Shown here piece by piece: positions 499 to 61,072 of a stretch of 64,000 nucleotides of DNA (positions within the stretch are counted from its first letter, which is position 1; every line of letters starts with the position of its first letter). The position numbers and the translations under genes are program-made. Source of the stretch: Pristiophorus japonicus (Eukaryota); the NCBI RefSeq assembly GCF_044704955.1, contig NC_092002.1, positions 4,836,001-4,900,000 of the forward strand. The letters are read 5' to 3'. The notes beneath the pieces were generated by a model. It was not told the origin of the DNA and made no database searches. It saw only the letters and a program-made list of their open reading frames with translations.

Positions 499-1885
499 CA
501 GTACTGCCCCTCCGACAGTGCGGCGCTCCCTCAGTACTGCCCCTCCGACAGTGCGGCGCTCCCTCAGCACTGCCCCTCCGACAGTGCGGCGCTCCCTCAG
601 TACTGCCCCTCCGACAGTGCGGCGCTCCCTCAGTACTGCCCCTCCGACAGTGCGGCGCTCCCTCGGCACTGCCCCTCCGACAGTGCGGCGCTCCCTCGGC
701 ACTGCCCCTCCGACCGTGCGGCGCTCCCTCAGTACTGCCCCTCCGACAATGCGGCGCTCCTTCAGTACCTCCCCTCCGACAGTGCGGCGCTCCCTCAGTA
801 CTGCCCCTCCGACAGTGCGGCGCTCCCTCAGTACTGCCCCTCCAACAGTGCGGCGCTCCCTCAGTACTGCCCCTCCGACAGTGCGGCGCTCCCTCGGCAC
901 TGCCCCTCCGACAGTGCGGCGCTCCCTCAGTACTGCCCCTCCGACAATGCGGCGCTCCTTCAGTACCTCCCCTCCGACAGTGCGGCGCTCCCTCAGTACT
1001 GCCCCTCCGACAGTGCGGCGCTCCCTCAGTACTGCCCCTCCGACAGTGCGGCGCTCCCTCAGTACTGCCCCTCCGACAGTGCGGCGCTCCCTCAGTACTG
1101 CTCCTCCCACAGTGCGGCGCTCCCTCAGTACTGCCCCTCCAACAGTGCGACGCTCCCTCAGTACTGCCCCTCCGACAGTGCGGCGCTCCCTCAGTACCGT
1201 CCCTCCGACAGTGCGGCGCTCCCTCAGTACTGCCCCTCCGACAATGCGGCGCTCACTCAGTACTGCCCCTCCAACAGTGCGGCGCTCCCTCAGTACCGTC
1301 CCTCCGACAGTGCGGCGCTCCCTCAGTACTGCCCCTCCGACGGTGCACTGCTCCCTCAGTACTGCCCCTCCGACACTCCCTCAGTATTGCCCCTCCGACG
1401 GTGCACCGCTCCCTCAGTACTGCCCCTCCGACAGTGCGGCACTCCCTCAGTACCGCCTCTCCGACAGTGCGGCACTCCCTCAGTACTGCCCCTCCGACAG
1501 TGCGGCGCTCCCTCAGTACTGCCCCTCCGACAGTGCACCGCTCCCTCAGTACTGCCCCTCCGACAGTGCGGCACTCCCTCAGTACTGCCCCTCCGACAGT
1601 GCAGCACTCCCTCAGTACTGCCCCTCCGACAGTGCAGCACTCCCTCAGCACTGCCCCTCCGACAGTGCGGCACTCCCTCAGTACTGCCCCTCCGACAGTG
1701 CAGCACTCCCTCATTACTGCCCCTCCGACAGTGCAGCACTCCCTCAGTACTGCCCCTCCGACAGTGCGGCGCTCCCTCAGCACTGCACTGGGAGTGTCAG
1801 CCTAGAATTTGTACTGAAGTCTCTGAAGTGGGACTTGAACTGATGACCCTTTTACTCGGAGGTGAGAGTGCTACCCCCTGAGCCA
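499..1885 (-). repeat. 33-bp minisatellite (~39 units) within a DeuSINE-like element; tRNA-like head at ~1790-1885
   Basis: Tandem CAGTACTGCCCCTCCGACAGTGCGGCGCTCCCT followed by the reverse-strand SINE head. Confidence 0.93.
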
Positions 1886-1909
1886 AAAGTTGAGATAAAT
1901 TAACTCGGA

Positions 1910-2530
1910 AAACAACAACTTGTATTTATATAGCGCCTTTAACGTTGTAAAACGTACCACGGCGCTTCACAGGAGTGTTTTAATGCAAAATAAATAAATT
2001 TGACACCAAGCCACATAAGAAGAAATGAGCGCAGGTGACCAAAAGCTTGGTCAAAGAGGTTTTAAGGAGCGTCTTGAAGGAGGAAAGAGAGGTAGAGAGG
2101 CGAAGAGGTTTAGGGAGGGAGTTCCAGAGCTTGGGGCCCAGGCAACAGAAGGCATGGCCACCGATGGTGGAGCGATTATAATCAGGGATGCTCAGGAGGG
2201 CAGAATTAGAGGAGCACAGACATCTCGGTGGGTTGTGGGACTGGAGGAGATTACAGAGATAGGGAGGGGCGAGGGCCATGGAGGGATTTGTAAACAAGGA
2301 TGGGAATTTTGAAATCAAGGCGTTGCTTAACCGGGAGCCAATGTAGGTCAGCGAGCACAGGGGGTGATGGGTGAGCGGGATTAGGTCCACGGGCAGCCAA
2401 GTTTTGGATGACCTCAAGTTTACGTAGGGCAGAATGTGGAAGGCCAGCTGGGATTGCGTCGGAGTAGTTAAGTGTCGAGGTAAAAGAGGCATGGATGAGG
2501 GTTTCAGCAGCGGATGAGCTGAGGCCAAAG
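1910..2530 (-). mobile_element. L2-clade LINE 3' fragment with (TTG)n tail
   Basis: LHWLPVKQRLDFKI..L.YKSLHG-type C-terminal ORF2 remnants; tail aaggcgctatataaatacaagttgttg. Confidence 0.8.
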
Positions 2531-2622
2531 GTCAGGGCATAGACCAAGTACCAAACTGGCGCTCTTTCTGGCTCAGCCACTTTTTAGATAAACACATTAA
2601 GAACATAAGAAATAGGAGCAGG

Positions 2623-6943: not shown

Positions 6944-7077
6944 TTATAGCTGTGCGAATGTAGAATCTCAAAACCTTCATTGATCACGTTGATGGGGCCG
7001 CTCACACGGACTGGAAGCTACGAAAGGGCTTTCATCTCATTACAAAATCAACTTTCAAGCCAACATTTTAACCCCCG

Positions 7078-7342
7078 GTGCTCCCTCAGCACTGCCCCTC
7101 CGACAGTGCGGCGCTCCCTCAGCACTGTCCCTACGACTGTGCGGCGCTCCCTCAGCACTGCCCCTCCGACAGTGCGCCGCTCCCTCATTACTGCCCCTCC
7201 GACAGTGCGGGGCTCCCTCAGCACTGCCCCTCCGACAGTGCGGAGCTCCCTCAGCACTGCCCCTCCAACACTGGGAGTGTCGACCTGGATTTTTGTATTC
7301 AAATCTCTGGAGTGGGACTCGAACCCACAACCTTCTGACTCA
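7078..7342 (-). repeat. 33-bp minisatellite (~6 units) plus SINE head
   Basis: Same unit; head gtgggactcgaacccacaaccttctgactcag. Confidence 0.9.
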
Positions 7343-7989: not shown

Positions 7990-8662
7990 TCCAGTGCAGT
8001 GCTGAGGGAGCGCCGCACTGTCGGAGGGGCAGTGCTGAGGGAGTGCCGCGCTGTTAGAGGGGCAGTACTGAGGGAGCGCCGTGCTGTCGGAGGGGCGGTG
8101 CTGAGGGAGCGCCGCACTGTCGGAGGGGTGGTGCTGAGGGAGTGCCGCGCTGTTAGAGGGGCAGTACTGAGGGAGCGCCGTGCTGTCGGAGGGGCGGTGC
8201 TGAGGGAGCGCCGCACTGTCGGAGGGGCGGTGCTGAGGGAGTGCCGCGTTGTTGGAGGGGCAGTACTGAGGGAGCGCTGTGCTGTCGGAGGGGCAGTGCT
8301 GAGGGAGTGCCGCACTGTCGGAGGGGCGGTGCTGAGGGAGTGCCGCACTGTCGGAGGGGCGGTGCTGAGGGAGTGCCGCACTGTCGGAGCGGCAGTGCTG
8401 AGGGAAAACTGCATTTTCAGAGGTGCTGTCTTTTGGATGAGACGTTAAACCGAGGCCCTGTCTGCTCTCAGGTGGATGTAAAAGATCCCACGGCACTATT
8501 TTGAAGAAGAGCAGGGGAGTTCTCCCCGGTGTCCTGGCGCCAATATTTATCCTTCAATCACAGATGATCTGGTCATTATCACATTGCTGTTTGTGGGAGC
8601 TTGCTGTGCACAAATTAGCTGCCACATTTCCCACATTACAACAGTGACTACACTCCAAAAGT
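7990..8662 (+). repeat. 33-bp minisatellite (~12 units) plus SINE body
   Basis: Reverse-complement unit followed by the gatgagacgttaaaccgaggccc... body. Confidence 0.9.
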
Positions 8663-8667
8663 CTCTG

Positions 8668-9413: not shown

Positions 9414-10093
9414 TGACTTCAAAAGTACTTCATTGGCTGTAAAGGGCTTTGAGACATCCAGTGGTCGTGAAAGGCGCTATATAAATGCAAGTCTTTTTTT
9501 TCATAGCCCTGCAATTTTTTTTTCCTTTCCTAGTATTTTTCCGATTTCTTTTGAAAGTTACTATTGAATCTGGTCCCACCGCCCTTTCAGGCAGCGCGTT
9601 ACAGTCATAACTCGCTGCGTAATTTATTTTTCCTTATGTTACCTCTGGTTCTTTTGCCAATTACCTTAAATGTGTCCAACATTTATATATTGACATTGAC
9701 ACTGGCCTGAATCCCAAAATATTAGAGGGTTGTTAGGATGCAGCTCTCCAGGCTCCTTAGAGTTTTCCCAACCTGTTCACATTTATTTCATTTTCTCCTT
9801 CAACTGAGGAGGTATTATTCCCCTCTCTTTGATTTCCTCCTGTCCTTTAGGCAATTTATTCTTGTTTGGATCGTTTCACGAGTGTCAATCACTCTGGTGT
9901 GTAAATTGGTTGCTGCGTTTGCAAAAGTTAAGTGACTACCAATGTTCCCTGGAACTTTTGTTTTGGGTGCGTGTGATCTTTAACTGGCTGTGCAGCCCAT
10001 CCAATTTCTCGTGCATGCGCAGTTATTTCCTGTGTGAATCCGTTGAACGGCCTGCGCGTTATCTCCAGAACGGTGTGCGGGAACATTGGTGAC

Positions 10094-13553: not shown

Positions 13554-13679
13554 TGTCAAAATCTATCTTTTCCACAATGTTTTTGGGCTTGATGCTTTCT
13601 TCCTGGTTGCAGATGAAGATTTTGTCTGGTTCTGACTCAGTCCAGCCGTACTTGCTCATCCAAACCTGCAACTGCATAT
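13554..13679 (-). CDS. EIF3K: eIF3k exon 7 (DMQLQVWMSKYGWTESEPDKIFICNQEESIKPKNIVEKIDFD)
   Basis: 126 nt, ttttcag/ and /gtgagt. Confidence 0.97.
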
Positions 13680-13969
13680 CTGAAAAATAAACGTGTCACC
13701 ACATTATTGAGAGTTGAGAGACACTGCAGACCATTCACTTAAAAAAAAGCACTTCCCCAGGAAAACTGAGCCCACCCATCCACTCTCAGGGATTGTGTGG
13801 AATAACGGAGCACCACGGTTGTGTTGTGGGTTCACAACCCGGAGCTACCTCTGGCTCCCAACCATGACCCCCCCCCCCCCCATGGGGAGGAGCTGAATGA
13901 AGGTCAGCTACACCTCTGGGCATTCCCCAGCATGTCTGCTGACCAGTTTCAGAACAAGCAGCTCACCCT

Positions 13970-14699
13970 CTGAAAGATGGCACCTCCGTCGGTGTGGCAC
14001 TCCCTCAGTACTGTCCCTCTGACAGTGCGGTGCTCCCTCAGTACTGTCCCTCCGACAGTGCGGTGCTCCCTCAGTACTGTCCCTCCGACAGTGCGGCGCT
14101 CCCTCAGTACTGTCCCTCCGACAGTGCGGTGCTCCCTCAGTACTGCCCCTTCGACAGTGCGGCGCTCCCTCAGTACTGCCCCTCCGACAGTGCGGTGCTC
14201 CCTCAGTACTGCCCCTCCGACAGTGCGGCGCTCCCACAGTACTGCCCCTCCGACAGTGCGGCGCTCCCTCAGTACTGCCCCTCCGACAGTGCGGCACTCT
14301 CTCAGCACTGCCCCTCCGACAGTGCGGCGCTCCCACAGTACTGCCCCTCCGACAGTGCGGCACTCCCACAGTACTGCCCCTCCGACAGTGCGGCGCTCCC
14401 TCAGTACTGCCCCTCCGACAGTGCGGCGCTCCCTCAATACTGCCCCTCCGACAGTGCGGCGCTCCCACAGTACTGCCCCTCCGACAGTGCGGCACTCCCT
14501 CAGCACTGCCCCTCCGACAGTGCGGCACTCCCACAGTACTGCCCCTCCGACAGTGCGGCACTCCCTCAGTACTGCCCCTCAAGCACTCCCTCAGCACTGC
14601 ACGGATTGTCAGCCTGGATTTTTGTGCTCAAGTCTCTGGAGTGGGACTTGAAGCCTTAATCTGCTGACTTAAGAGGTGAGAGTGAGTCACGGCTGACAC
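13970..14699 (-). repeat. 33-bp minisatellite (~18 units) plus SINE head, in EIF3K intron 6
   Basis: Same unit and head. Confidence 0.9.
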
Positions 14700-18424: not shown

Positions 18425-18901
18425 AAAAGACTTGCATTTCTATAGCGCCTTTCACGACCACTTGACATCTCAAAGCGCTTTACAGCCAACGAAGGACTTT
18501 TTAAAATAAAAAGTGTGGTCACTGTTGTAATGTAGGAAAGGCAGCAGCCAATTTGCGCACAGCAAGCTCCCACAAACACCAATGTCACAACGACCAGATA
18601 ATCTGTTTTGTTGTGTTGATAGAGGGATAAATATTAGCCCAGCCAGGACACCGGGGATAACTCCCCTGCTCTTCTTCGAAATAATGCCGTGGGATTTTTT
18701 TTACATCCATCCGAGGGGACAGACGGGGCCTCGGTTTAACGCCTCATCTGAAAGATGGCACCTCCGACAGTGCGGCGCTCCCTCAGTACTGCACTGGGAG
18801 TGTCAGCCTAGATTTTTGCGCTCATGTCCCTGGAGTGGGACTTGAACCCACAACCTTCTGACTCCGAGGCGAGAGTGCTGCCCACTGAGCCACAGCTGAC
18901 A
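18425..18901 (-). mobile_element. DeuSINE-like element, unexpanded single-unit form
   Basis: Complete head-body-tail with one copy of the 33-bp unit. Confidence 0.85.
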
Positions 18902-19249
18902 GTGTGATGTGACCAAAGACGCAACCTTCTTTTTAGGACTCCCGCAAGTGATGCAAACACAGCCCAGATATCTGCTCCTCAGGTGGGAAGTTCGCACTGG
19001 GCTATTGGTGTTCCCGAGAAAGGGTAATTACAACTCCGCCCCCCCCATCCTTCTCGGGTTGATTCTGGCAAGGCCTCAGTTATCGCCCATCTCTAGTTAC
19101 CGCGAAGGTGGTGGTGGAACGACTATTTGAACCACTGGGTGATGGTTTGATCTGGGTAGCTTGCTGGGCCACTTCAGACTGTACTGAGTCAACCACGTAG
19201 AGTGGGACTGGAGTTCCTGGCTACAGGAGTGGTGCCAGAGCATTGGAGA

Positions 19250-22409: not shown

Positions 22410-23345
22410 CTGCGTTGGCTCGGTTAAGGAAGGTTTGGTTCAATACTTGTATCAGCGCCCTGTGCCATGCTTAAGGGGTACTATTCATAGAAATTTACAG
22501 CACTGAAGGAGGCCATTCGGACCATCGTTTCCACGCCGGCCGACAAAGAGCTACCCAGCCTAATCCCACTTTCCAGCTCTCGGTCCGTAGCCCTGTAGGT
22601 TACCGCACTTCAGGTGCACATCCAAGTACCTTTTAAATGTGGTGATTGTTTCTGCCTAATTTGGGGGGGTGGGGGGTGGGGGGAAATTGGGAAATTCCTC
22701 TCCGACCCATCTAGATGATCAAAACGAGTCCAGATCACTCTGGCCCTGAATTCCCTGCAGTACCTCCCCCTCTGTAAGGGGCGATCTCCGGCAGTGCGGC
22801 GCTCCCTCAGTACTGTTCCTCCGACAGTGCGGCTCTCCCTCAGTACTGCCCCTCCGACAGTGCAGCGCTCTCTCAGTACTGTTCCTCCGACAGTGCGGCG
22901 CTCCCTCAGCACCGCCCCTCCGACAGTGTGGCACTCCCTCAGCACTGCCCCTCCAACAGTGCGGCACTCCCTCAGCACTGCCCCTCCAACAGTGCGGCAC
23001 TCCCTCAGCACTGCACTGGGAGTGTCAGCCTAGATTTTTGTGCTCAAGTCCCTGGACTGGGACTTGAACCCACAACCTTCTGACTCAGAGGCGAGTGTGC
23101 TGCCCACTGAGCCACAGCTGACACTCGAATCAGGAAGCCCAAGGGAGGTAAACAGTTCCACATTTTTGAGATTGGCTGGGAAATAATACATGAAAGATCA
23201 GGTCATTACCCCAGTCGCAGTTTTTTCCCCCTCAGTTGTGAGATGAAAACCTGAGTGCACGGACACGTTAGTTGTATCCCTTTCTCAATGAAAAGCAGAA
23301 TCGGTCAGCCCAGAGGTGAGGCGGCAGCCTCTTTGGAAAGGATAC
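22410..23345 (-). other. EIF3K: U12-type (minor spliceosome) GT-AG intron 3 of EIF3K
   Basis: 5' site GTATCCTTT (23337-23345); branch site TTCCTTAAC (22423-22431) close to the AG; no polypyrimidine tract. Confidence 0.93.
22786..23124 (-). repeat. 33-bp minisatellite (~7 units) plus SINE head, inside the U12 intron
   Basis: Same unit and head. Confidence 0.9.
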
Positions 23346-23466
23346 ATGCGTCTGGTCGATCATACATTTGCAGAGCGTGAAGTCTGTATGTGGCAGGTTC
23401 GTTAGTGCCTTCAGCAAGATCTGCGCGGTTACAGTGGTCTGAAAGAAGGCGGGATTGAACTGATAC
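23346..23466 (-). CDS. EIF3K: eIF3k exon 3 ([40 protein letters not shown])
   Basis: 121 nt, cag/ acceptor and /GTATCCTTT (U12) donor. Confidence 0.97.
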
Positions 23467-26789: not shown

Positions 26790-28073
26790 GCACTGTCGGA
26801 GGGGCAGTGCTGAGGGAGCGCCGCACTGTCGGAGGGGCAGTACTGAGAGAGCGCCTCACTGTCGGAGGGGCAGTACTGAGGGAGCGCCGCACTGTCGGAG
26901 GTGCAGTACTGAGGGAGTGCCGCACTGTCGGAGGGGCAGTACTGAGGGAGCGCCGAACTGTCGGCGGGGCAGTACTGAGGGAGCACCGCACTGTCGGAGG
27001 GGCAGTGCTGAGGGAGTGCCGCACTGTCGGAGGGGCGGTACTGAGGGAGCGCCGCACTGTCGGAGGGGCAGTACTGAGGGAGCACCGCACTGTCGGAGGG
27101 GCAGTACTGAGGGAGCGCCGCACTGTCGGAGGGGCAGTACTGAGGGAGCGCCGCACTGTTGGAGGGGCGGTACTGAGGGAGCGCCGCACTGTCGGAGGGG
27201 CGGTACTGAGGGAGCGCCGCACTGTCGGAGGGGCGGTAGTGAGGGAGCGCCGCACTGTCGGAGGGGCAGTGCTGAGGGAGTGCCGCACTGTCGGAGGGGC
27301 AGTACTGAGGGAGCGCCGCACTGTCGGAGGGGCAGTACTGAGGGAGCGCCGCACTGTCGGAGGGGCAGTACTGAGGGAGCACCGCACTTTCGGAGGGGCA
27401 GTACTGAGGGAGCACCGCACTGTCGGAGGGGCAGTGCTGAGGGAGCGCCGCACTGTCGGAGGGGCAGTACTGAGGGAGCACCGCACTGTCGGAGGGGCAG
27501 TACTGAGGGAGTGCCGCACTGTCGGAGGGGCAGTGCTGAGGGAGCGCCGCACTGTCGGAGGGGCAGTACTGAGGGAGCGCCGCACTGTCGGAGGGGCAGT
27601 ACTGAGGGAGCACCGCACTTTCGGAGGGGCAGTACTGAGGGAGCACCGCACTGTCGGAGGGGCAGTGCTGAGGGAGCGCCGCACTGTCGGAGGGGCAGTA
27701 CTGAGGGAGTGCTGCACTGTCGGAGGGGCAGTACTGAGGGAGCGCCGCACTGTCGGAGATGCCGTCTTTCGGATGAGACGTTAAACCGAGGCCCCGTCTG
27801 CTCCCTCTCAGGTGGACGTAAAAGATCCCAGGCCCACAATTTCGAAGAAGAGCAGGGGAGGTGTCCTGGGGCCAATATTTATCCCTCGACCAACATCACA
27901 AAAACAGATTATCTGGGACATTATCACATTGCTGTGTGTGGGAGCTTGCTGTGCACAAACTGGCTGCTGCGTTTCCCACAGTACAACAGTGACTACACTC
28001 CAAAACTACTCCATTGGCTGTAAAGCGCCTTGGGAACGTGCTGAGGAGGGTGAAAGGCGCTATAGAAATGCAG
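26790..28073 (+). repeat. 33-bp minisatellite (~29 units) plus SINE body and tail, in EIF3K intron 1
   Basis: Array 26790-27758, then body ending gaaaggcgctatagaaatgcag. Confidence 0.92.
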
Positions 28074-28074
28074 G

Positions 28075-28460
28075 TCGCGGCCTCTCACCGGTCGATGCCT
28101 TTCAGCAGCTTCCCCACGTTGGCCCTCATCTGCTCGATGGCGCTCATGGCTGCCGCTGCCCCTGCCCCTGCCGCTGCCCCTGCCGCTGCCGCTGTGTCTG
28201 ACTGTCTGCGCTCCGGGTGCCAGGCGAGTTGCCGAGTTTACGGGAGCCCCGGGCCTGCAGCAACCGGCGAAACCTCAACACACGCGGCTTCCGTCACACA
28301 CGGCGGGGAGAGGTCAAAGGGGGAGAGCAGCGGCTGAGCATGCGCGGCTCAGGCAGGCCGGCCGGACGGCCGCCGGTACGGCGCACGCGCAACCCCGGTC
28401 ACCGCGCCTGCGCGGCAGTCCCAATCTGGAACAAGTTGTGACGCATGCGCGTTTCTAATT
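28075..28460 (-). promoter_or_regulatory. EIF3K CpG-island promoter/5'UTR with TOP/TCT-like pyrimidine tract and ETS- and NRF1-like sites
   Basis: CpG-dense; - strand CTCTCCCCCTTTGACCTCTCCCC (28305-28327), CGGAAG (~28288-28293), GCATGCGC motifs (~28338, ~28443), CCAAT (28421). Confidence 0.75.
28089..28147 (-). CDS. EIF3K: eIF3 subunit K, exon 1 (MSAIEQMRANVGKLLKGIDR)
   Basis: GCAGCCATG start, 59 nt, /gtgaga donor; recognisable eIF3k N-terminus. Confidence 0.96.
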
Positions 28461-29084
28461 GTTCCCCCTGCTTCTATTAGTTGCTGGGCATTTGTAGAAT
28501 TTTACAATTCATCTTCCTCAAAGATGTCGACTTCTGTTAACTAGATTTCCTACATTACAACAGTGACTACACTCCAAAAGTACCTCATTGGCTGTAAAGC
28601 GCTTTGAGACGTCTAGTTGTCATGAAAGGCGCTATACAAATCCAAGTTCGTTGGCAGTTCATTTGATATATTCAAGAGGGAGTTAGATGTGGCCCTTACG
28701 GCTAAAGGGATCAAGGGGTATGGAGAGAAAGCAGAAAAGGGGTACTGAGGGAATGATCAGCCATGATCTTATTGAATGGTGGTGCAGGCTCAAAGGGCCG
28801 AATGGCCTACTCTGCACCTATTTTCTATGTTTCTAAGTCTTTCTTTCTTTAGCTTATTGTTGTACAGACTGTCAACCTTACTCCTGATAATCAGTTCCAT
28901 TATTTTACCTGCAATGGAAGTGAGTCTGTAGTTAAGAACATAGGTACAGGAGGGGGTCATGCAGCCACTCGAGTCGATCCCCTCCCCCCCCTCCTCACCC
29001 CATTCAATGAGATCATGGCTGTTCTGTGACCTGACTCCATATAACACGCCTTTGCTTCATATCCATAGTTAGATGCTTGTGAGG

Positions 29085-29585
29085 TCAGGTCGCACTCCAG
29101 GGACTTGAGCACAGAATCTAGGCTGACACTTCAGTGCAGTGCTGAGGGAGTGCTGCACTGTTGGAGGTGCCGTCTTTCGGATGAGATATTAAACCCAGGC
29201 CCCGCCTATCCTCTCACGTGGATTTAAAAGATCCCATGCCACTATTTCAAAGAAGAGCAGGGAAACATAGAAACATAGAAAACATAGAAAATAGGTGCAG
29301 GAGTAGGCCATTCGGCCCTTCGAACCTGCACCACCATTCAATAAGATCATGGCTGATCCGAAGTTCTCCCCGGTGTCCTTGGGGCCAATATTTATCCCTC
29401 AATCAACATAACAAAAACAGACGATCTTGTCATTATCACATTGCTGGTTGTGGGAGCTTGCTGTGCACATATTGGCTGCCGTGTTTCCCACATTACAACA
29501 GTGACTGCACTCCAAAAGTACTTCATTGGCTGTAAAGCGTTTTGGGGTGCTTTTTAAGTCATGAAAGGCGCTACATGTAAGTCTT
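29085..29585 (+). mobile_element. DeuSINE-like element (single unit) interrupted by a short antisense CR1 3' tail (~29263-29360)
   Basis: SINE body split at gaagagcagg|...|agttctcccc by an aaacatag-repeat CR1 tail. Confidence 0.8.
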
Positions 29586-29892
29586 TATCCCTTAATAATT
29601 TTGGTTAACAAAAATCTATCAATCTCAGATTTAAAATTAACAATTGACCCAGCATCAACTGCCATTTGTGGAAGAGCACTCCAAATTCCTACCATCCTTT
29701 GCTTCCTAACTTTACTCCTGAAAGGCCTGACTCTAACATCTAGGTTATGTCCCCAGTCCTAAAAACCCCAACCAGTGAAATCGTTTCTCTCTATCTACTC
29801 TATCAGTTCCCCTTAATATCTTGAAAACTCAACCTGTAACCTTGTAGTTTCGAGGGAATACAACTCTAGATTGTGTAATCTCTCCTTGTAAT

Positions 29893-30171: not shown

Positions 30172-31337
30172 GTAATTTAATCCTTTGAGTCCAAGTTTCA
30201 TTCTGGTAAACCTATGCTGCACTCCATCCAAGACTAATATATCCTTCCTAAGTTCTGCCGAAGGGTCACCGACCCAAAATGTTCACTCTGCTTTCTCTCC
30301 ACAGATGTTGCCTGACCCGCTGAGATTTCCAGCATTTTCTGTTTTTATATCCTCCCTAAGGTGTGGTGCCCAGAACTGCTCACAGTGCTCCAGGTGTGGG
30401 CTAACCAGGGCTTTGTACAGCTGCTGCATAACTTTTACCCCCTTGTATTCGAGTCCTCGAGATATAAAGGCCAGCATCTCATTAGGCTTTTTAATTAGTT
30501 TTGATACCTTTAGTCTTTGGACCTCACTGTTTCTCGCTTTTAAACCATTTAGAAAGTACTCTAAACTATCCTTTTTAGGTCCAAAGTGGATGACCTCACA
30601 CTTGCCTATATTGAAATCCATTTGCCAGTTATGCCCATTCACTTAATCTATTATTATCTATTTGTAATGTTATGCTTCCAACTACACTGCTTACAATAAA
30701 AGCAGGAATGAGCCATACCGCCCCTCGAGCCTGCTCCGCCATTCAATAAGATCATGGTTGATCTTCAACCTCAGCTCCCCTTCCCCGCCCGATCCCCTTA
30801 TCCCGTAGTTACCCGTGTCTCCTCTTTTTGAATTTGGGCACCACATTAGCCTGTGACCAATTGATTGGTACCTCGCCAGTTTCCAGTGATTTCCTCATAA
30901 TGATTGGCAGTGCCTCACAAATTTCCTCCCTAGTCTCTCCCAGCACTGTGGGGAAAAAGATCATATATCGCTGGAGATATATTGAGCTCATTTTGCCTAA
31001 CTAGAGCTTCCATTTCTATACAGTGAAGTGTTGGTTTTACTTGGGATATCCTTGTTTATAGAGGGCGTGTTGCTCATTTCTTCCTTTGTGAATACTTGGA
31101 GGAAGTAATTATTCAGAATATTTACTATTTTTTGCTCATCCTCAGTTCAAAGCTTATTTGACATTTTTTATGGGTTTCAGTTCTCTCTGACTGACCTGTT
31201 ACTGTTGTGGTACTAACATTATTGATGTAAAAGCATAACAACAAGACATGCCTGCATATATAATATTCTTAGCAATTCGTTAGCTCTTTGAAAGAGCCGG
31301 CACAGGCACGATGGGCTGAAAAACCTCCGACTTGCGT

Positions 31338-32230
31338 GGCAGCCGTGGCTCAGTGAGTAGCATCTTGCCTCTGAGTCAGAAGGTTGTGGGTTGAAGTGCT
31401 TTTCTAGAGACTTGAGCACAAAAAAATCCAGGCTGACACTTCCAGTGCAGTACTGAGGGGGCGCTGCACTGTCGGAGGGGCAGTACTGAGGGAGCGCCGC
31501 ACTGTCGGAGGGGCAGTACTGAGGGAGCGCCGCACTGTCGGAGGGGCAGTACTGAGGGAGCACCGCACTGTCGGAGGGGCAGTACTGAGGGAGCGCAGCA
31601 CTGTCGGAGGGGCAGTACTGAGGGAGCGCCGCACTGTCGGAGGGGCAGTACTGAGGGAGTGCCGCACTGTCGGAGGGGCAGTACTGAGGGAGCGCCGCAC
31701 TGTCGGAGGGGCAGTACTGAGGGAGCGCCGCACTGTCGGAGGGGCAGTACTGAGGGAGCACCGCACTGTCGGAGGGGCAGTACTGAGGGAGCGCAGCACT
31801 GTCGGAGGGGCAGTACTGAGGGAGCGCCGCACTGTCGGAGGGGCAGTACTGAGGGAGTGCCGCACTGTCGGAGGGGCAGTACTGAGGGAGTGTTGCACTG
31901 TCGAAGGTGCCGTCTTTCGGGTGAGACGTTAAACCGAGGCCCCGTCTGCCCTCTCAGGTGGACGTAAAAGATCTCACAGCCACTATTTCGAAGAAGAGCA
32001 GGGGAGTTATCTCCGGTGTCCTGGGTTCAATATTTATTCCTCAATCAACATACCAAAAAAACAGATGATGTGGGTCATTATCACATTGCTGTGTGTGGGA
32101 GCTTGCTGTGTGCAATTGGCTGTCGCGTTTCCCACATTACAACAGTGAATACACTCCAAAAGTACTTCATTGGCTGAGTTTGGGATGTCTGAATGGATGT
32201 GACAGGCATTATATAAATGCAAGTCTTTCT
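31338..32230 (+). mobile_element. Full-length tRNA-derived DeuSINE-like element (SacSINE1/AmnSINE1-like) with ~14-unit internal minisatellite
   Basis: A-box tggctcagtgag, B-box-like ggttgaagt, array 31445-31905, conserved central body, tail tatataaatgcaagtctttctt. Confidence 0.85.
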
Positions 32231-36105: not shown

Positions 36106-36106
36106 G

Positions 36107-44612: not shown

Positions 44613-44774
44613 TTTTAAGATATCGCACGCCAGTCAGAGCAAAGGCTGTACGAGCTGTGCATGGAGATGGGAAAAGCACCGGGAGATAGGTGGCCGCTTC
44701 ACGTGCACCAATTCCCCCCACCCCGGGAGATTTGCCCCAGCACCATACGCAGCCCCGCAGGGACCCATAAAAAA

Positions 44775-45234
44775 AAGACTTGCATTTCTAAAGCGCCTTT
44801 CACAATCACTGGACGCCTCAAAATGCCTTAGCCAATGAAGTACTTTTGGAGTGTAGTCACTGTTGTAATGTGGGAAACATGGCAGCCAAATTGTGCACAG
44901 CAAGCTCCCATACACAGCAATGTGATAATGACCAGATCATCTGTTTTTGTTATGTTGAGGGATAAATATTGGCCCCAGGACACTGGGGATAACTTCCCTG
45001 CTCTTCTTTTGAAATAGTGCCATGGGATCTTTTGACGTCCACCTGTGAGGGCTGACAGTGCCTCGGTTTAACGTCTCATCTGAAAGACTGCACCTCCGAC
45101 AGTGTGGCACTCTCTCAGCACTGCACTGGACATGTCAGTCTAGATTTATGTGCTCAAGTCGCTGGAGTGGGATTTGAACGCACAACCTTCTGACTCAGAG
45201 GTGAGTGTGCTACCCACTGAGCCACAGCTGACAC
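44775..45234 (-). mobile_element. DeuSINE-like element, single-unit form
   Basis: Complete head-body-tail with one unit. Confidence 0.85.
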
Positions 45235-53276: not shown

Positions 53277-53416
53277 CGTTCACCTTCTTCGACCCGAATG
53301 ACCCGGCCTGCCAGGAAATCCTGTTCGACCCTCAGACGACCGTTGCCGAACTCTTCGCCATCATCAGGCAGTGGGTACCCCAGGTGCAGCATAAAATCGA
53401 CACCATCGGAAACGAG
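53277..53416 (+). CDS. CLIP3: CLIP3 second coding exon (AFTFFDPNDPACQEILFDPQTTVAELFAIIRQWVPQVQHKIDTIGNE)
   Basis: 140 nt, ctgcag/ and /gtgagt; close match to CLIP3. Confidence 0.96.
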
Positions 53417-53721
53417 GTGAGTCGAGGCACCTGGCCTTCCTCGAGCTTGTCCCATTTCAGTCGGACTTGGCTCACGATCGGCAACAAAGGAAATATTACA
53501 TTACCTCCGGAGGATTTAGAAACAAAAGACTCGATGAGAGTATCGGTGGAAACATCCTGATTTTAAAAGCCGAGACTGTCATTCGATAATGTGGCAGCCG
53601 AATTTCTTGAATCGCTTAATTTCGATGAAACACATTTAAAATGGACAATCTCCAGTCCCTCACACAATTCGCTATTTTGATCCGGTTTGCGTTCAGCAAT
53701 CTCATGGGATCAAGTAACCTC

Positions 53722-54490
53722 GAGGCCGAAATCGTCCCGTTCTGTCAGGCCTCGGTGCGGACTGGCCGGCGAGTCGCTGTGCAGGGGCCGCCATTTTATA
53801 AACTGCCCTTGCCCGGGTTTGGAGCGGCGCAGGGGCGCGGACCCGCCCGTATCCCCGCCGCACCGCGCACGCGCACCCCCTTACCAACCGGCGGCAATCC
53901 CCTTCCCGGAATTGCCTCGCGGGAAATTTCCCCTTTGTAAAACTGCCCGCGGGAGCGGCGCTGCCAATCGGTGCCCCCGACAGCGCTTGCCGTCGGTACG
54001 CTCTCTGTGACTTGGCGACATAGCCGCCCTTAAAGGGGAGGGCGCACTGCCGGCGACTCCATGCTTTTTATTTTTGTCGGCCGACTGCTGGGTGGGTTGA
54101 ACCGACAGTTTTGCCCCCCCCGGGTTCGGCCGGGACGCCCCTCCTCCCCGGCCCTGTTGGGGTGCCAGGCCACTGGCCCGGCTGAGACCCTCCCTGGTGG
54201 CCCAGTGTTTGCCACTGAAGTGGCTGCAGAGTTCGCAGCGACCTCTCCCCTTTAACTGAAGGGGCGGGACCGTTTGTGACGCGCCAGCGCGATGATGTCA
54301 TCAGCACGGCGCTGAGGCCTTGGAGCGTCGGTCACTCTGACCCGCCCCCATTTCCGCCCCGCTCCAAAAAAATCCCACAAAGTGCTGAATTTCTCCGCTT
54401 TGACCGTCCCGTCCCGTGCATTCTGGGGGACGGGACGCTTCAAGAGCACTCGGTGCGACTCGTTTCAGGCGATGGGCAATTTCGGCCCCC
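53722..54490. mobile_element. GC-rich non-autonomous DNA transposon with ~16-bp TIRs (possibly PIF/Harbinger); related fragment at ~11180-11557
   Basis: gaggccgaaatcgtcc ... gggcaatttcggcccc; possible 3-bp TSD ctc. Confidence 0.62.
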
Positions 54491-54544
54491 CTCAAGTCTG
54501 CTATTTTGTTAAAATTAGGATGACAGGCATTTTGACCTTACTGT

Positions 54545-55520
54545 TAGCTGTGCTCAGTGGGCACGGTCGCCTTGGAGTCAGATGGTTGTGGGTTCAAAAA
54601 TCCAGGCTGACGCTCCCAGTGCAGTGCTGAGGGAGCGCCGCACTGTCGGAGGGGCAGTACTGAGGGAGAGCCGCACTGTCGGAGGGGAAGTGCTGAGGGA
54701 GCGCAGTACTGAGGGAGCGCCGCACTGTCGGAGGGGCAGCGCTGAGGGAGTGCCGCACTGTCGGAGGGGCAGCGCTGAGGGAGCGCCGCACTGTCGGAGG
54801 GGAAGTGCTGAGGGAGCGCAGTACTGAGGGAGCGCCGCACTGTCGGAGGGGCAGCGCTGAGGGAGTGCCGCACTGTCGGAGGGGCAGTGCTGAGGGAGCG
54901 CCGCACTGTCGGAGGGGCAGCAGTGAGGGAGCGCCGCACTGTCGGAGGGGCAGCACTGAGGGAGCGCCGCACTGTCGGAGGGGCAGTACTGAGGGAGCGC
55001 CGCACTGTCGGAGGGGCAGTACTGAGGGAGCGCCGCACTGTCGGAGGGGCAGTACTGAGGGAGCGCCGCACTGTCGGAGGGACAGTACTGAGGGAGCGCC
55101 GCACTGTCGGAGGGGCAGTACTGAGGGAGCGCCGCACTGTCGGAGGGGCAGTACTGAGGGAGCGCCGCACTGTCGGAGGGGCAGTACTGAGGGAGCGCCG
55201 CACTGTCGGAGGGGCAGTACTGAGGGAGCGCCGCACTGTCGGAGGGGCAGTACTGAGGGAGCGCCGCACTGTCGGAGGGGCAGTACTGAGGGAGCGCCGC
55301 ACTGTCGGAGGGGCAGTACTGAGGGAGCGCCGCACTGTCGGAGGGACAGTACTGAGGGAGCGCCGCACTGTCGGAGGGGCAGTACTGAGGGAGTGCCGCA
55401 CCGCCGAAGGTGCCGATTTCAGATGAGACATTAAACCGAGGCCCCGTCTGCTCTCTGAGGTGAACGTAAAAGATCCCATTTCACTATTTCTAAGAAGAGC
55501 AGGGGAGTTATCCCCAGAGT
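54545..55520 (+). mobile_element. DeuSINE-like element with ~24-unit minisatellite
   Basis: Head, array 54620-55405, partial body. Confidence 0.87.
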
Positions 55521-58129
55521 CCTTGTCTCGGTTTAATGTCTCATCCGAAAGACGGCACCTCTGACAGTGCAGCACTCTCTCAGCACTGCACTGGAGTGTC
55601 AGCCTGGATTTAAGGACCAAGAGGCCGATCCCTGGGGTCAGAGGTCTGAGCTATTACTGGAGAATCTTGGCTTGCCAGCCCTGAAATAGGGCCTCCGGGA
55701 AGATATAAAAGACCGTGTATGGTATAGAAAATCTGTCCGGCACAGGCACGATGGGCCGAATGGCCTCATTCCGTGCTGCGTTTTTCTGATTGACTGAACA
55801 CTACGTCAGGTTAAACAGTGGCATTAGGACAAGGAAGCACTGGGCCAAACCTAAAAGGTAAATTTAAGTCTGATACATATTTGAAAAGGAAAGATTTGCA
55901 GTGTATGGGGAAAGAGCAGCGTGGGGATAATGGGGTTATTGGATAATTGGCAGAGAGCCGGCACAGACACGATGGGCCAAATGGCCTCCTTCTGTGCCAT
56001 TCTACGCCAGGAACTTCTTTCTCTCACAGTGATTGACTCGTGAAATGGACTTCAGAGCAGGGAGCTGGAGCCAAAGGTTTGGGAAATTTCTGGCTGTTGT
56101 GTGGGGGGTGGGGGCGGGGGCAGGGGCAGTGGGTGTGATTGGCCGGACGGGGTGAATGGCCTCCCTCAGCCCGATCGGCCTTGTGATGATTGCGACCCTC
56201 GTCGCAGATGTGGAGAGGGAAATTGACCGAACGGAATGCTAGGCGGTTATTTCCGTGACTTGGTCATTCGAGATTCTCATCTCTTGTTGTGCGCAGACCA
56301 CAGGCCTCAAACTAGCTCGATCTCTGGATTTATGAGACACTGCCCTCTCCCGATGATTCATTACCACTTGGTTAGAGTAGTGCTGGCTGCAGCAGCACAC
56401 AGCCTCTAACCAGCAGCACCGATCTGAACCAGTAACTCAAGGGCAGTGAGACAGCCACAGCCTGAGATATGCTTTTCATCTAATACAGGGTGACGTCGAG
56501 GTTAGAATCACAGAGCGGTTACAGCACAGAAGGAGGCCATTCGGCCCGAGAGCCCGTGCCGGCTCTCTGCGGGAGCACCTCAGCCAGTCCCACTCCCCCC
56601 ATCCTTTCCCCGTAGCCCTGCAAATTTTTCCTTCCGGTATTTATCCAAAGTCCTTCTGAAAGCCGCGATTGAGTCTGCCTCCACCACCCTCTCAGGCAGC
56701 GCATTCCAGATCCTAACCACCCGCTGCGTAAAAAGGTTTCCCCTCCATGTCGCCTTTCTGCCACTCGCCTTAAATCAGTGTCCCTCTGGTTCTCGACCCT
56801 TCCACCAATGGGAACAGTTTCTCTCTGTCTACTCTGTCCAAACCCCTCATGATTTTGCACCTTTGGTTCCCTTTGGTAACATCATCCTGAAGCATGCCAT
56901 CAAGTTCCATGTGTGTGTAGATCGTACCCAGCTTTACCGTTCCATCTCCCAGCTTGATTCCATGGCTCTTGCTCAACTCTCCAACTACCTGCCTGATGTT
57001 AAGTCTTAGACGAGTCAAAACTTCCCCCAGCTTTCTATAAGCTCTCCTTGGGTGATGTTCCACAGTCTGGAGTGTATTCCGTACCGGATAAGGTGGAGTG
57101 CATTCCACGCAGGATAACGTGGAGAGTATTAACAAACCCATCTCAAAATCAATCTACTTCTATTAACAAAAGCCTTTCTCAAAGGCCATCTTTATAACAA
57201 TGCTTTCACTCACGACTCCTAACCCTCCCACAATGGCCCAGCATTCATTCCTTTGTCTACTTTATTTCTTTCCTCCCCCTTCCGTGAAATGCCTTGGGAC
57301 AATTTTCCTAAAAAAAAACCAGATTAAAAGGTCATTATCGCATTGCTGTGTGTGGGAGCTTGCTGTACGCAAATTGGCTGCCGCGTTTCCCACATTACAA
57401 CAGTGACTCCCCACCTTCCCTCTCAGGCGGATGTAAAAGATCCCATGGCACTATTTCGAAGAGCAGGGTAGTTCTCCCCGGTTTCCTGCCCAATATTTAT
57501 CCCTCAATCAACACAACGAGAAAAAAAAGGATTATCTGATCATTATCACATTGATATTTGTGGGAGCTTGCTGTGCGCAAATTGGCTGCCCCGTTTCCTA
57601 CATTACAACAGTGACTACACTCCAAAAGTACTTCATTGGCTGTAAAGCGCTTTGAGATGTCTGGTGGCCGTGAAAGGTGCTATATAAATCCATTTTAAAA
57701 AGAAATCTCATACCATTCCTGTGAAGCACCTTGGGACGTTTCACTATGTTAAAGGCGCTATATAAATACAAGTTATTGTTGTTGTGGGAGTTTTAACCTG
57801 CATCTGACCTGGGATGGGGAAGTGGAGACAGGGTGAGGGGGCATGGGCGGAGGAGGGGGCTTTACTCCATCTTACCTGTCCTGCACCTGACCCCGAAGTG
57901 TGTGGTCCCAGAGTGGGAAATGTGCACTCCCAGAGTTAGTGAGTGAAGCAGGGATCACGTCAATATTTATAAATGGGTTAGACAGGTACTTGAAGGAAAA
58001 GAGATACGGGACCAGGGGCCAGCAGTGCTCGTGCGGTCGACCGGTTGGGGTGAATGGGCTGTTTCTGTGCTGTAATTAATTTCCATGTATAAAGAGAGGG
58101 GACAAACTGTCAAATTTGCACTAAATTCG

Positions 58130-58610
58130 TTACCTGTCCCTCGAGAAGGTGGTGGTGAACCTCCTTCTTGAACCGCTGCAGTCCGTGTGGTGAAGGTGCT
58201 CCCACAGTGCTGTTAGGGAGGGAGTTCCAGGATTGGGACCCAGCGACGATGAAGGAACGGCCGATATATTTCCAAGTCAGGATGGTGTGTGACTGGGAGG
58301 GGAACGTGGAGGGGGTGGTGTTCCCATGGACCTGCTGCCCTTGTCCTTCTAGGGGGCAGAGGTCGTGGGTTTGGGAGGTGCTGCCAAAGAAGCCTTGGCG
58401 AGTTGCCGCGGTGCATCTTGTAGACGGTACACACTGCAGCCAGGGGGCGCCGGTGGTGGAGGGAGTGTGTTGAAGGTGGTGGGTAGCGTGCCGATCGAGT
58501 GGGCTGCTTTGTCCTGGATGGTGTCGAGCTTCTTGATTTGCTCAGGACAACTAGGAATGGGATAATAAATTTACCTCCACCAGTGTGGCCTACATCCAGA
58601 GAATAAATAA
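58130..58610 (-). mobile_element. HER1-like (CR1 group) LINE 3' fragment
   Basis: HSLHHRR..AAVCTVYKMH..NSPRLL.QHLPNP remnants; 3' end similar to the HE1 tail. Confidence 0.65.
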
Positions 58611-60139
58611 TTCTCCTCTCTCTGCCCTCCACCTGCCCATTCACATTGAAAAGCACAAAAAAATTGGTGTGGAACCTAATTAAATAAATAAACTGGAAGG
58701 CTGCCTCCTCATGTGGAACAGAAAGCTGAATATTTTGATTTGATTTAAACCACTGATCCAGACTCTCGCTGTCTCCGCTGAATTGCCTGGGTTGAACCTG
58801 CTGGGAATCGCTCGCCTCTCGGACTGATTTAACACAGACCCAGTTGCACTCTCCCTGTCCCGTGACCCAGACATAAATCCCACAGAACAATTTTACTCAT
58901 CATTTAATGGTCAGTCGCTTGATTGGTATTTACCACCTGACAGCCTCTGATACGATTCCCAATCAGTTCAGGACTTGGAATTACTGTACTGCTTCTGCAT
59001 TAGTTTGAAAAATAAATCAGTCCGGAAAATGCAATTAGTTTTGGGAGCGCTGGGCTGTCGTCCCTCTGAGCTGTCGTCGGAAGAACAACAGGTGGCAAGG
59101 CAGTTCAGCCCATCGTGCCCGTGCTAGCTCAATGCTTGAGCGATCCACACCTGTCCCTGCTCTCTCCCTCAAACCCTGCTTCTTTCTCGTCTCTGTGAGA
59201 GAGCGATCCAATTAATCCCACTCCCCCGTAGCCCTGAAAATTTTTCCTTTTCAAGTATTTATCCAATTCCCCGTTTGAAAGTCACTATTGAATCTGCTCC
59301 CTTTCAGGCAGCGCGTTCCCAATCACAGCAACTCGCTGCGTAAAAATAACATTCTTCTCATCAACCCTGTTATAGAATCATAGAACAATAATAACGTCCC
59401 ATCATGTCTGTGCAGTCGACAAAGAGCTACCCAGCCTAATCCCATCTTCCAGCACTAGGTCCGTAGCCCTGTGGGTTACCCTCGCTAGTGCAATCACATC
59501 TTTCCTGTAATGCGGTGACCAAAACTGCACGCAGTACTCTAGCTGTGGCCTAACTAAAGTTTTATACAGTTCACGCATAACCTTCCTGCTCTTGCATTCT
59601 ATGCCTCAGCTAATAAAGGAAAGCATTCCATATGCCTTTTTAACCATCTTATCGACCTGGTCTGCTACCTGGTTCTTGATCCTTTTGCCATTTATCTTAA
59701 ATCTGTGTCCTCTGGTTACCCCACCCTCCAGCCACTGGAAACTGTTTCTCCCGATATGCTCCATCAAAACCTTTCATAATTTTGAAAATATCAAATCTTT
59801 TCTTAAACTTCTCTGCTCTAATGATAACAACCCCAGCTTCTACGCATAACTGAAGTCCCTCATCCCAGGGACAATTCGAGTAACACTCCTCTGCACTCTC
59901 TCCAAGGCTTTGAAATCCTTGCTAAAGTGCGGTGCTCAGAATTGGACACAGTACCCCAGGTGAGGCCGGGCTAGGGGAAGGGTTCTTTCATCACAGATGC
60001 CAAACTGTGAACACTTGAGATTGTGTCTGCCTGTGCAAAGGGTCCAGGTAGATATTAACAATCCCATGGCAACAGTTTGAAGAGGAATAGAGAGTTTTTC
60101 TGAAGTCCTGTCCAACATTCTTTTCCCCAACCGACAGTT

Positions 60140-61072
60140 GTCAGCCGTGGCTCAGTGGGCAGCACTCTCGCTTCTGAGTCACAAGTTCGAGTCCCACTCC
60201 AGGGTCTTGAGCACAAAAATCTAGGCTGACAATCCCAGTGCAGTGCTGAGAGAATGCTGCACTGTCGGAGGGGCAGTACTGAGGGAGCACCGCACTGTCG
60301 GAGGGGCAGTGCTGAGAGAATGCCGCACTGTCGGAGGGGCAGTACTGAGGGAGCGCCGCACTGTCGGAGGGGCAGTGCTGAGGGAGCGCCGCACTGTCGG
60401 AGGGACAATACTGAGGGAGTGCCGCACTGTCGGAGGGGCAGTACTGAGGGAGCGCCACACTGTCGGAGGGGCAGTACTGAGGTAGCGCCGCACTGTCGGA
60501 GGGACAATACTGAGGAACGCCGCACTGTCGGAGGGGCAGTGCTGAGGGAGCGCCGCACTGTCGGAGGGGCAGTACTGAGGGAGCGCCGCACCGTCGGAGG
60601 GGCAGTACTGAGGGAGCGCCGCACTGTCGGAGGGGCAGTACTGAGGGAGCGCAGCACTGTCGGAGGGGCAGTACTGAGGGAGCGCCGCACTGTCGGAGGG
60701 GCAGTACTGAGGGAGCGCTGCACTGTCGGAGGGGCAGTACTGAGGGAGCGCCGCACTGTCGGAGGTGCCTTCTTTCCGATGAGACGTTAAACCGAGGCCC
60801 CATCTGCGCTATCAGGTGGATGTAAAAGATTCCATGGCACTACTTAGAAGAAGAGCAGGGGAGTTATTCCGGGTGTCTTGGCCAATATTTATCCCTCAAT
60901 CAACATAATGAAAATAAAAAACAGATTACCTGATCATTATCATATTGCTGCTTGTGGGAGCTTGCTGTGTGTAAAATGGCTGCCCTGTTTGACCAAAAGA
61001 ACAGCCATTGTACTTTGAAAGCAATTGATTGCGTGTGAAATACTTGTGTTGTGGTGTTATATATAAATGTAC
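60140..61072 (+). mobile_element. DeuSINE-like element with ~16-unit minisatellite
   Basis: Head gtcagccgtggctcagtggg, array 60240-60765, body and degenerate tail. Confidence 0.87.

Follow-up and report, generated by a model that had tools for sequence, protein, structure and literature searches.

The closest known system to the repeat family described here is that of the squamate SINE-derived satellites, sSat1-3 (Vassetzky, Kosushkin, Ryskov 2023, PMC10702118). In the accessible part of that report, an internal SINE segment is tandemly repeated at many dispersed loci, the terminal units pass into SINE sequence at one end of the array or at both, subvariants alternate within arrays, and the satellites are subtelomeric while their parent SINE is evenly spread. 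The unit of snake sSat3 is uniform across loci and also across species. The 33-bp arrays of the sawshark Pristiophorus japonicus resemble the squamate satellites in all of these features, including a unit that is uniform across loci, but belong to another SINE family in another vertebrate class and have a far shorter unit (33 bp versus ~70–290 nt). The squamate study invokes unequal recombination and concerted evolution; its accessible part offers neither a junction marker nor a flank mosaic analysis nor a test that would separate a master copy from an origin in place, and it leaves open how one tandem repeat enters thousands of separate SINE insertions near chromosome ends only.

Further bodies of work are relevant. 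Minisatellites derived from B1, MaLR, and Alu (Bois 1998; Kelly 1994; Jurka and Gentles 2006; as cited in PMC9659126 and PMC6947457) are, like the shark arrays, families that expand at a single site within a dispersed retroelement, with short flanking repeats proposed as the initial step. The citing articles, as far as accessible, take them as repeated in-place origins, whereas the shark junction suggests a single origin. Non-allelic gene conversion among Alu and other transposable element copies (Fawcett and Innan 2019, PMC6598467) gives mosaics of diagnostic variants among dispersed copies, as seen in the shark SINEs. In the accessible part of that article, conversion is raised at spacings below 10 kb and at hotspots; the shark SINEs show no local excess and differ from the Alu case in a gradient toward chromosome ends, in changes directed to G/C, and in a tandem array that was probably what was carried. 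In sharks, GC, simple-repeat content, and the rate of substitution increase toward chromosome ends and on small chromosomes, which is ascribed to recombination, in reports whose accessible parts name neither the present repeat nor SINE conversion (PMC10620051, PMC13100897). A DeuSINE of sharks, SacSINE1, is named in PMC4824008; it has a tRNA-type head and shares a body of ~320–350 bp and a shark host with the SINE studied here, whose head may also be of tRNA type. The accessible part of that paper mentions no internal array, and the motifs sought were not found in two of its three supplementary files. Searches of an open-access library gave no account of the present shark repeat or of conversion-driven spread.

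The window, by which we mean the whole 64,000-nucleotide stretch analyzed, contains nine 33-bp arrays in one SINE, as the preliminary description had reported, and TRF recovered all nine with scores of 320–2140. The SINE, which may resemble SacSINE1 in sequence, had been described as tRNA-headed. A- and B-box-like motifs are indeed present in the head, but ARAGORN called 0 genes and Rfam gave no tRNA match.

Head and body are both kept in only three of the nine arrays, all on the plus strand. These are a complete SINE with 14 units at 31337..32228 (TRF 31447-31907, 14.0 copies), a SINE with 24 units and a cut body at 54540..55523 (TRF 54621-55401, 23.7 copies), which includes two 16-bp half units forming a 115-bp block, and a 16-unit copy that retains the head and nearly all of the body at 60139..60983 (TRF 60240-60765, 16.0 copies). 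In two plus-strand copies, the head is wholly or mostly missing: a 5′-truncated SINE at 7996..8654 with a native left border, 12-13 units, and a body (TRF 7996-8405, 12.4 copies), with a tail-like piece resuming at 9418-9497, and a 29-unit array with a full body and most of the head deleted at 26790..28076 (TRF 26790-27758, 29.4 copies). The body is missing from the four minus-strand arrays. The first, at 493..1885, joins an array (TRF 493-1786, 39.5 copies) to a SINE head inside a calpain intron, and the second, at 7076..7341, joins 5-6 units (TRF 7076-7270, 5.9 copies) to a partial head, with a hairpin-crossing deletion shortening the first unit. The other two lie in eIF3K introns and consist of a head, 18 units, and ~15 bases of body at 13969..14684 (TRF 13983-14580, 18.1 copies) and a head with 7 units at 22786..23123 (TRF 22786-23014, 6.9 copies).

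Single-unit copies occur alongside. The three listed in the preliminary description were found again, namely full-length SINEs on the minus strand at 18425..18905 (unit at 18761-18792) and 44773..45233 and a plus-strand copy at 29067..29586 carrying an insert at ~29262-29362. Two more were absent from that list: a partial copy on the minus strand at 62912..63196 and an inverted partial piece at 55527-55611, opposite in orientation to the adjoining array copy at 54540..55523.

These arrays have the architecture of an sSat. The repeated unit is a portion of the SINE shorter than the SINE itself, and there are at least four middle monomers, with 7–39 units in eight of the nine arrays and 5-6 in the other. 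All nine join SINE sequence in register through a terminal unit on at least one side, and three do so on both; across 264 kb around the window, terminal units run into SINE in 22 of 23 arrays, and array bases make up 12,165 of the 264,000. Since the unit, at 33 bp, falls outside the squamate range, the family is a minisatellite-sized variant working like an sSat. Window arrays have a GC content of 66–70% and a CpG observed/expected ratio of 0.63–0.82, against 48% and 0.51 in the remaining window.

The unit was said to contain the palindrome CAGTACTG. This form prevails in arrays, with 1052 of 1292 internal units, but is in the minority among single-unit copies (55/134). A second difference lies at the junctions. 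The base at both SINE borders of the unit is T, yet the junction between units is G in 147 of 151 window junctions and in 1262 of 1305 junctions from 94 unselected arrays; exact junction matches genome-wide number 212,847 for G and 2,549 for T, and among the listed two-unit copies a T junction occurs in only 4 of 100. Borders of T beside junctions that are nearly all G argue for a single shared origin, and the 33-bp arrays therefore likely arose once rather than being re-invented in each SINE copy. Simple hypermutability of the site does not explain this, since the right border of the SINE, which has the same left context as the junction, is still T in 54 of 57 distal singles; against the favored reading, the right border is G in 14 of 64 arrays. 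The array cannot be read as a chain of selected hairpins, as the array form weakens the hairpin energy of three units from -21.3 to -14.3 kcal/mol, and neither quasi-palindrome repair nor half-unit templating, inspected by eye, yields the junction G.

The SINE itself spread over whole chromosomes as a single-unit element. The arrays did not share this distribution. On the largest contig (C1), with contig ends taken as chromosome ends, 93 of the 100 listed array borders lie within 22 Mb of an end, compared with 8 of 52 thinned single copies, and 27 arrays and 3 singles fall in the first 9 Mb, with 97 singles in the following 17 Mb. Sampling was pattern-targeted, and zone limits were set with the array map already known. 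Genome-wide, there are at least 4,482 array loci, and 20,541 single-unit copies were counted against 120 two-unit copies. The arrays are nearly restricted to contig-end zones plus some small or interstitial zones, which does not agree with the earlier idea of a genome-wide generator. Seven old fossil arrays with a G junction were seen in the interior of C1.

Array-bearing copies do not form one young subfamily, a pattern that would have spoken against the in-place expansion proposed in the preliminary description. Median body divergence is 7.7% in 56 arrays and 7.4% in 106 singles, and no fixed flank marker of array-bearing copies was found. In an almost star-shaped SINE tree, with good support for 2 of 188 branches, arrays require 45 changes versus 47.1 when shuffled (119 of 500 shuffles as low), whereas interior singles cluster, with 40 changes versus 49.2 (0 of 500). 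An SVA-like composite that retrotransposes with its VNTR does not fit copies that form no clade, match singles in age, and are restricted to ends. An expanded master copy is likewise unfit, as arrays are as diverged as singles, form no clade, and lie near ends where singles are depleted.

What sets distal SINE copies apart, array-bearing or not, is a group of seven raised variants, all toward G/C and rare in interiors. Variant -88 is present in 74/125 distal versus 8/82 interior copies, variant +181 in 31/133 versus 0/98, and a 2-base G insertion in 57/102 versus 2/66. The enrichment recurs in four distal groups and holds genome-wide, with 69 of 75 C1 matches near ends. The variants behave as a mosaic: -88 and the G insertion assort independently (p=0.6), six-marker variance is 1.46 versus 1.20 shuffled (p=0.11), and one of 21 marker pairs departs from this, +115 and +222 showing linkage (phi 0.27, p=0.005). 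Older subfamily haplotypes are strong in core singles (variance 2.85 versus 1.13), much retained in distal singles (2.02 versus 0.99), and faded in distal multi-unit copies (1.42 versus 1.08). Head-body linkage was computed by zone; pooling interior and distal singles partly produces linkage. A mosaic of diagnostic variants together with lost subfamily linkage is the pattern expected of non-allelic gene conversion among transposable element copies. Ordinary allelic GC bias would raise A/T-to-G/C change only 1.3–1.6-fold, and the median over 208 A/T sites shifts from 0.03 to 0.04. Several of the seven variants extend a neighboring run and could be recurrent slippage mutations.

Neighboring distal copies do not share rare variants in excess (0.67 per 1000 sites in 450 pairs under 300 kb apart versus 0.73 in 7851 pairs on different contigs), in contrast to the rate increase reported for close Alu neighbors. 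Rare variants per site are 0.037 in distal copies and 0.047 in cores. Taken together, these values indicate that any transfer was not recent, heavy, or mainly local. Furthermore, no co-conversion gradient is seen, as divergence next to arrays is not below that of distal singles, and array flanks show no extra GC bias beyond distal singles. Neither a donor-recipient pair nor a conversion tract was recognized among the SINE copies analyzed.

Array lengths, on the other hand, change in place after insertion, as shown for paralogues with 98–100% identical flanks, which carry about 24–42 units each. Locus-private unit variants and higher-order blocks agree with this. At lag 198, one exact run starts at 716 and extends for 128 bp, and another, within the 14-unit SINE, starts at 31466 and extends for 227 bp; at lag 231, an exact run of 174 bp starts at 27305. 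These periods bear out the blocks described earlier, except that a reported 114-bp period is really 115 bp (3×33+16; 103 bp exact from 54670). In-situ expansion thus stands as regards length change after insertion but not as regards seeding from each copy's own unit, given junctions of G rather than T. All 14 paralogues of the single duplicated insertion found carry arrays, so no switch from single unit to array was caught at one locus.

On balance, we favor old GC-biased non-allelic gene conversion among end-proximal SINEs as the process that spread the array, with slippage and unequal exchange altering lengths afterward. An early single duplication of the hairpin-bearing 33-bp segment would have changed the junction T to G. 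At a time when the copies had hardly diverged, breaks near chromosome ends would have been repaired from other SINE copies with a bias toward G/C, and SINE homology on both flanks would have allowed additional units to enter together with further G/C variants. Already inserted single-unit copies would receive the array from array-bearing ones in these zones, which we infer to be rich in recombination. Slippage and unequal exchange may then expand, shrink, and homogenize each array, and those in interiors would be decaying fossils. This reading implies no function of the arrays for the host. A bolder form of this proposal, which we offer tentatively, is that end-proximal SINEs constitute a genome-wide, GC-biased conversion network in which the minisatellite would spread in a homing-like manner without retrotransposition, converting up to ~90% of these copies to unstable arrays, with the junction G promoting its own spread.

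It is also conceivable, though unlikely, that many already mosaic array-bearing sources retrotransposed with a strong end preference, or survived only there, and changed length in place later. Inheritance from such sources would fit the junction and internal unit variants common to arrays, the resemblance to the SINE in the outer half of the first and of the last unit, the G-junction fossils in interiors, the rare variants without local sharing, and a 2-base insertion that is commoner in distal multi-unit (46/68) than distal single copies (11/26; p=0.03). However, arrays are neither a clade nor younger, their markers are unlinked, two-unit copies are few beside the singles, and singles are depleted at the C1 end beyond being outnumbered. 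The required end preference is also a difficulty, as we know of no case in which SINE point variants redirect LINE-driven insertion ~100-fold.

Less probable again are independent duplications at many distal copies, of which only those gaining a junction G would expand, through a second G-run that may form a G-quadruplex or promote recombination, with arrays homogenized mutually later. Fresh T-junction dimers do exist (two of four have identical units, one pair sharing a private base), the G doubles the G-runs per unit and raises a G4Hunter-type peak from 0.76 to 1.2, and 3 of 57 distal singles have a G at the right border. No pure T-junction long array was present among 16 arrays retrieved via the T junction, and all but one short case were majority G. 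But 42 of 48 two-unit copies are already G, so that T intermediates are too scarce to account for 4,482 or more array loci. Moreover, of 43 arrays whose first unit carries the SINE-majority base, 33 have internal units unlike that first unit. The G-run loops, at 9 and 17 bases, are long for a stable quadruplex, and inter-locus transfer would still be required.

The preliminary model, in which any SINE copy anywhere in the genome seeds an array from its own unit, is very improbable: a hairpin and short GCAC-type repeats do flank the unit, and a few T-junction dimers and locus-private variants fit, but it predicts T junctions, host-type units, and no end bias, against G in 97–99% of junctions, the 33 of 43 arrays whose internal units are unlike the host's, and the C1 end bias. 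Equally improbable are assembly artefacts or an all-array start with interior collapse, for although array lengths are as assembled and collapse would likewise leave T borders, short-read contigs from a run that contains this stretch pile up over the unit to 4-5 times the depth seen over the body, the same is seen in other organisms, private unit variants fall in ordered blocks, and interior arrays persist and decay instead of collapsing.

With its one-base origin marker, thousands of array loci, and more than 20,000 single-unit copies as controls, the shark family allows the question of spread to be tested directly. If the favored conversion reading is true, SINE subfamily dating in distal DNA would be misleading, ectopic GC-biased conversion would add to the GC gradients of shark chromosome ends, and the arrays would serve as recombination-zone markers and multi-locus VNTRs for sharks. 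A homing-like network, if real, would account for snake and shark SINE satellites being uniform, dispersed, and subtelomeric together, and the array map would amount to a fossil recombination map, with former chromosome ends marked as well.

Arrays around the window sit in introns of housekeeping genes. Pfam searches on 68 long ORFs returned only calpain and two reverse-transcriptase fragments. The calpain protease-domain exon is at 74..241 on the minus strand (PF00648, E 4e-10), and eIF3K, also on the minus strand, has one exon at 13564..13680 (human residues 167-205, E 4e-15) and its first coding exon, in a CpG island, at 28088..28147 (residues 1-20, E 3e-5). The placement of CpG-rich blocks beside exons and promoters, as first described, is true in the window for the calpain and eIF3K introns, but may only reflect gene-dense distal DNA. 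The SINE 3′ end of the 26790..28076 copy lies ~10 bases from the eIF3K exon-1 donor.

We found nine arrays of the 33-bp unit in the window, at the places reported in the preliminary description and with 5.9–39.5 copies each by Tandem Repeats Finder. BLAST with the single-unit copy at 18425–18905 as query showed that all nine join one SINE in register on at least one side. The SINE head and body, the parts either side of the unit, are both kept in three of the nine; the body is missing in four and most of the head in two. The family is a candidate DeuSINE resembling SacSINE1. Higher-order blocks of 198 bp and 231 bp described previously are real, as is a further periodicity, although it measures 115 bp and not 114 bp. 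The arrays have 66–70% GC and a CpG o/e of 0.63–0.82. The first units at 7226–7270 and 14575–14600 are shortened by deletions that span the hairpin of the SINE and are bounded by short matching ends. An inverted single-unit SINE piece (55527–55611) lies immediately behind the cut body of the copy at 54621, and similar fold-back pairs occur at C1:512.93 Mb and C3:195.29 Mb. The window spans 4,836,001–4,900,000 of a 27.5-Mb contig (C28) in a 5.9-Gb genome, likely that of a shark, and the surrounding 264 kb hold 23 arrays and 11 single-unit copies. Seventeen untargeted 10-kb stretches (L224–L240; C28 at 2 and 8–26 Mb, and six macro-contig interiors) held three singles and no arrays, so the zone at ~4.7–5.0 Mb is unusually dense even within C28.

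Next, we examined the base at the junction between units. The single-unit SINE has T on both sides of a 32-base core, and simple duplication would therefore always put T between units. The 151 window junctions comprise 147 G, 3 A, and 1 T. In 94 arrays unselected for T, 1,262 of 1,305 junctions are G, with G in the majority in 92 of 93 scored arrays; exact patterns genome-wide gave 212,847 G junctions vs 2,549 T junctions. Even among 16 arrays fetched via a T junction, almost all are mixed and mainly G. Two-unit copies are rare (120 vs 20,541 single-unit copies), and 4 of the 100 listed have a T junction by eye count. In two of these four dimers the units are identical, and in one of the two both units carry a private base; fresh duplication thus occurs, but rarely. 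Among the 43 arrays that carry the SINE-majority G at position 6 of their first unit, 33 have A there in most internal units. At the SINE right border, with identical left context, T is kept in 54/57 distal singles (near contig ends) and 49/64 arrays. The junction census, internal-unit differences, and T-keeping right border together argue for a common origin of the arrays.

The arrays are concentrated toward contig ends. A strict pattern found 4,482 array left borders genome-wide. The first 100 listed are all on the 546-Mb contig C1, with 43 at 0–20.2 Mb, 7 across the next 500 Mb, and 50 at 532–539.5 Mb, the position of the last of the 100. In thinned single-unit lists (one C1 copy occurs in both), 8 of 52 C1 copies lie ≤22 Mb from an end. 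The first 9 Mb of C1 carry 27 arrays, 5 of them paralogues, vs 3 singles, and 97 singles lie at 9–25.8 Mb. Interior array units are degenerate (3.6 differences from the commonest unit, six arrays), compared with 1.8–2.7 differences in arrays ≤12 Mb from an end. A place-dependent process after insertion is needed to explain this distribution. Interstitial two-unit clusters far from contig ends (C3:229–239, C6:66–67, C10:47–50, C17:28–32, and C21:31–35 Mb) may mark fusion sites where former chromosome ends met, or joins made in scaffolding.

We annotated 295 copies, then 354 once loci were added and rows dropped. Non-CpG body divergence is 7.7% in 56 arrays of at least 6 units vs 7.4% in 106 singles, which include 29 chosen for query likeness. 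No fixed flank site separating arrays from singles was found among annotated copies. On a FastTree of 191 copies, weakly resolved with 2/188 branches starred, arrays need 45 changes vs 47.1 shuffled (119/500 as low), and interior singles do cluster (40 vs 49.2, 0/500). Similar divergence, the absent fixed site, and unclustered arrays rule against an array-bearing master subfamily. One interior SINE with four units (L201, C1:116,851,480) is 24–29% diverged, mostly by sense-strand A lost to G or T, and the tree flagged its odd letter make-up; it may have undergone hyper-editing ahead of insertion, or mark a relic hotspot.

For marker, linkage, haplotype, and variable-site counts, we excluded this outlier, six paralogous duplicates, and the 29 query-like singles. 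We compared 207 distal copies, a pattern-targeted sample lumping in small contigs and interstitial array zones, with 116 core singles (C1–C4, >22 Mb from ends, C3 220–260 Mb omitted). Fourteen sites differ at p < 0.002; seven variants are commoner distally, all to G or C, and seven are rarer, six being A/T variants. For example, -88 C is found in 74/125 distal vs 8/82 core copies, +181 G in 31/133 vs 0/98, and a 2-base G insertion in 57/102 vs 2/66. Distal singles carry the raised variants too, not just arrays, and the rise recurs at both ends of C1, on C28, and on other contigs. The insertion, sought with an independent pattern across the genome, gave 4,100 matches; of the 75 on C1, 69 lie ≤22 Mb from an end. 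General GC bias is evident, with 93/108 variable sites G/C-richer distally and a G/C-to-A/T change of 0.046–0.056 vs 0.077 fitting it; the A/T-to-G/C rise it predicts, 1.3–1.6-fold, is far under the site-specific rises.

We lean toward one founding duplication followed by GC-biased non-allelic conversion. The parent SINE has a single unit; the arrays have a common junction, are restricted to ends, and form no clade; the G/C variants are unlinked; and paralogues differ in length. Conversion would have carried extra units from copy to copy. Counting against conversion, private divergence of distal copies is only modestly lower and several raised variants prolong adjoining runs. No extra rare variants common to neighboring copies were found in a sharing test, and no divergence gradient was found flanking arrays. 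End-targeted, mosaic array-bearing sources are a less likely explanation. A subfamily would carry the raised variants jointly, and this expectation is at odds with their being mostly unlinked: 20/21 marker pairs lack linkage at p < 0.01, marker counts per copy agree with independence (67 copies, p = 0.11), and 43/50 core copies have no marker. The signal of older subfamily haplotypes declines from cores, where it is strong (variance 2.85 vs 1.13), through distal singles, where it can still be seen clearly (2.02 vs 0.99), to distal multi-unit copies, where it is weak (1.42 vs 1.08). Independent duplications whose expansion depends on G are doubtful. Independent seeding from each copy's own unit, as first proposed, is very improbable, as T junctions are expected and G is observed nearly everywhere. 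An assembly artefact, or collapse of arrays, is hardly credible.

Array length has changed in place. A single SINE insertion, set in a LINE-like fragment, has 14 pattern matches: five dispersed near the C1 end (L131–L135, 0.27–3.2 Mb), eight in a tandem of ~8 kb (including L207–L208, C1:20.07–20.14 Mb), and one at C2:4.21 Mb. The five dispersed paralogues, with flanks 98–100% identical, carry 42, 39, 24.5, 28.5, and 35 units with common but rearranged unit variants, and two of the eight tandem paralogues at 20.1 Mb carry 15 degenerate units each. Half-unit steps of 16 bases in arrays demonstrate out-of-register exchange.

We aligned contigs of eight public runs, of which X1 is possibly the source sample and non-independent, to a two-unit copy. 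Summed contig depth, which is not copy number, has a unit peak in organisms A–E and H, and F and G have just a weak one. In the alignment row of the junction, one place off our own count within a C run, the share of the ancestral base is 7, 9, and 12% in organisms B, D, and E, respectively, but 75% in F. The same derived junction is common to several organisms, which makes the founding event old and fits early transfer, while copies were alike. Organisms F (run X17) and G (run X21) have the SINE with a small array signal, indicating a strong between-species difference in array load.

The kind of system is known. Published work describes SINE-derived satellites at squamate subtelomeres (PMC10702118), TE-derived minisatellites (PMC9659126, PMC6947457), gene conversion among Alu copies (PMC6598467), and shark chromosome-end gradients (PMC10620051, PMC13100897). 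In the open-access literature, we found no paper that treats this 33-bp repeat or the spread by conversion of an array inside a SINE.

The window also contains minus-strand exons of a calpain gene and eIF3K, with arrays within their introns or nearby. At 28076–28087, ~10 bases separate the 3' end of an array-bearing SINE from the splice donor of eIF3K exon 1, beside the CpG island of that gene. Repeats unrelated to the SINE array include a 56 bp x6 tandem repeat in a CpG-rich block (12770–13111), a G-rich complex array (16054–16513), and a 16-bp pyrimidine repeat (40699–41212). LINE-type reverse-transcriptase fragments (Pfam PF00078) lie at 19640–20023 and 23406–23951. The region 53300–54600 contains an exon-like stretch with an end near 53417, plus a CpG-rich block immediately upstream of the copy at 54621.
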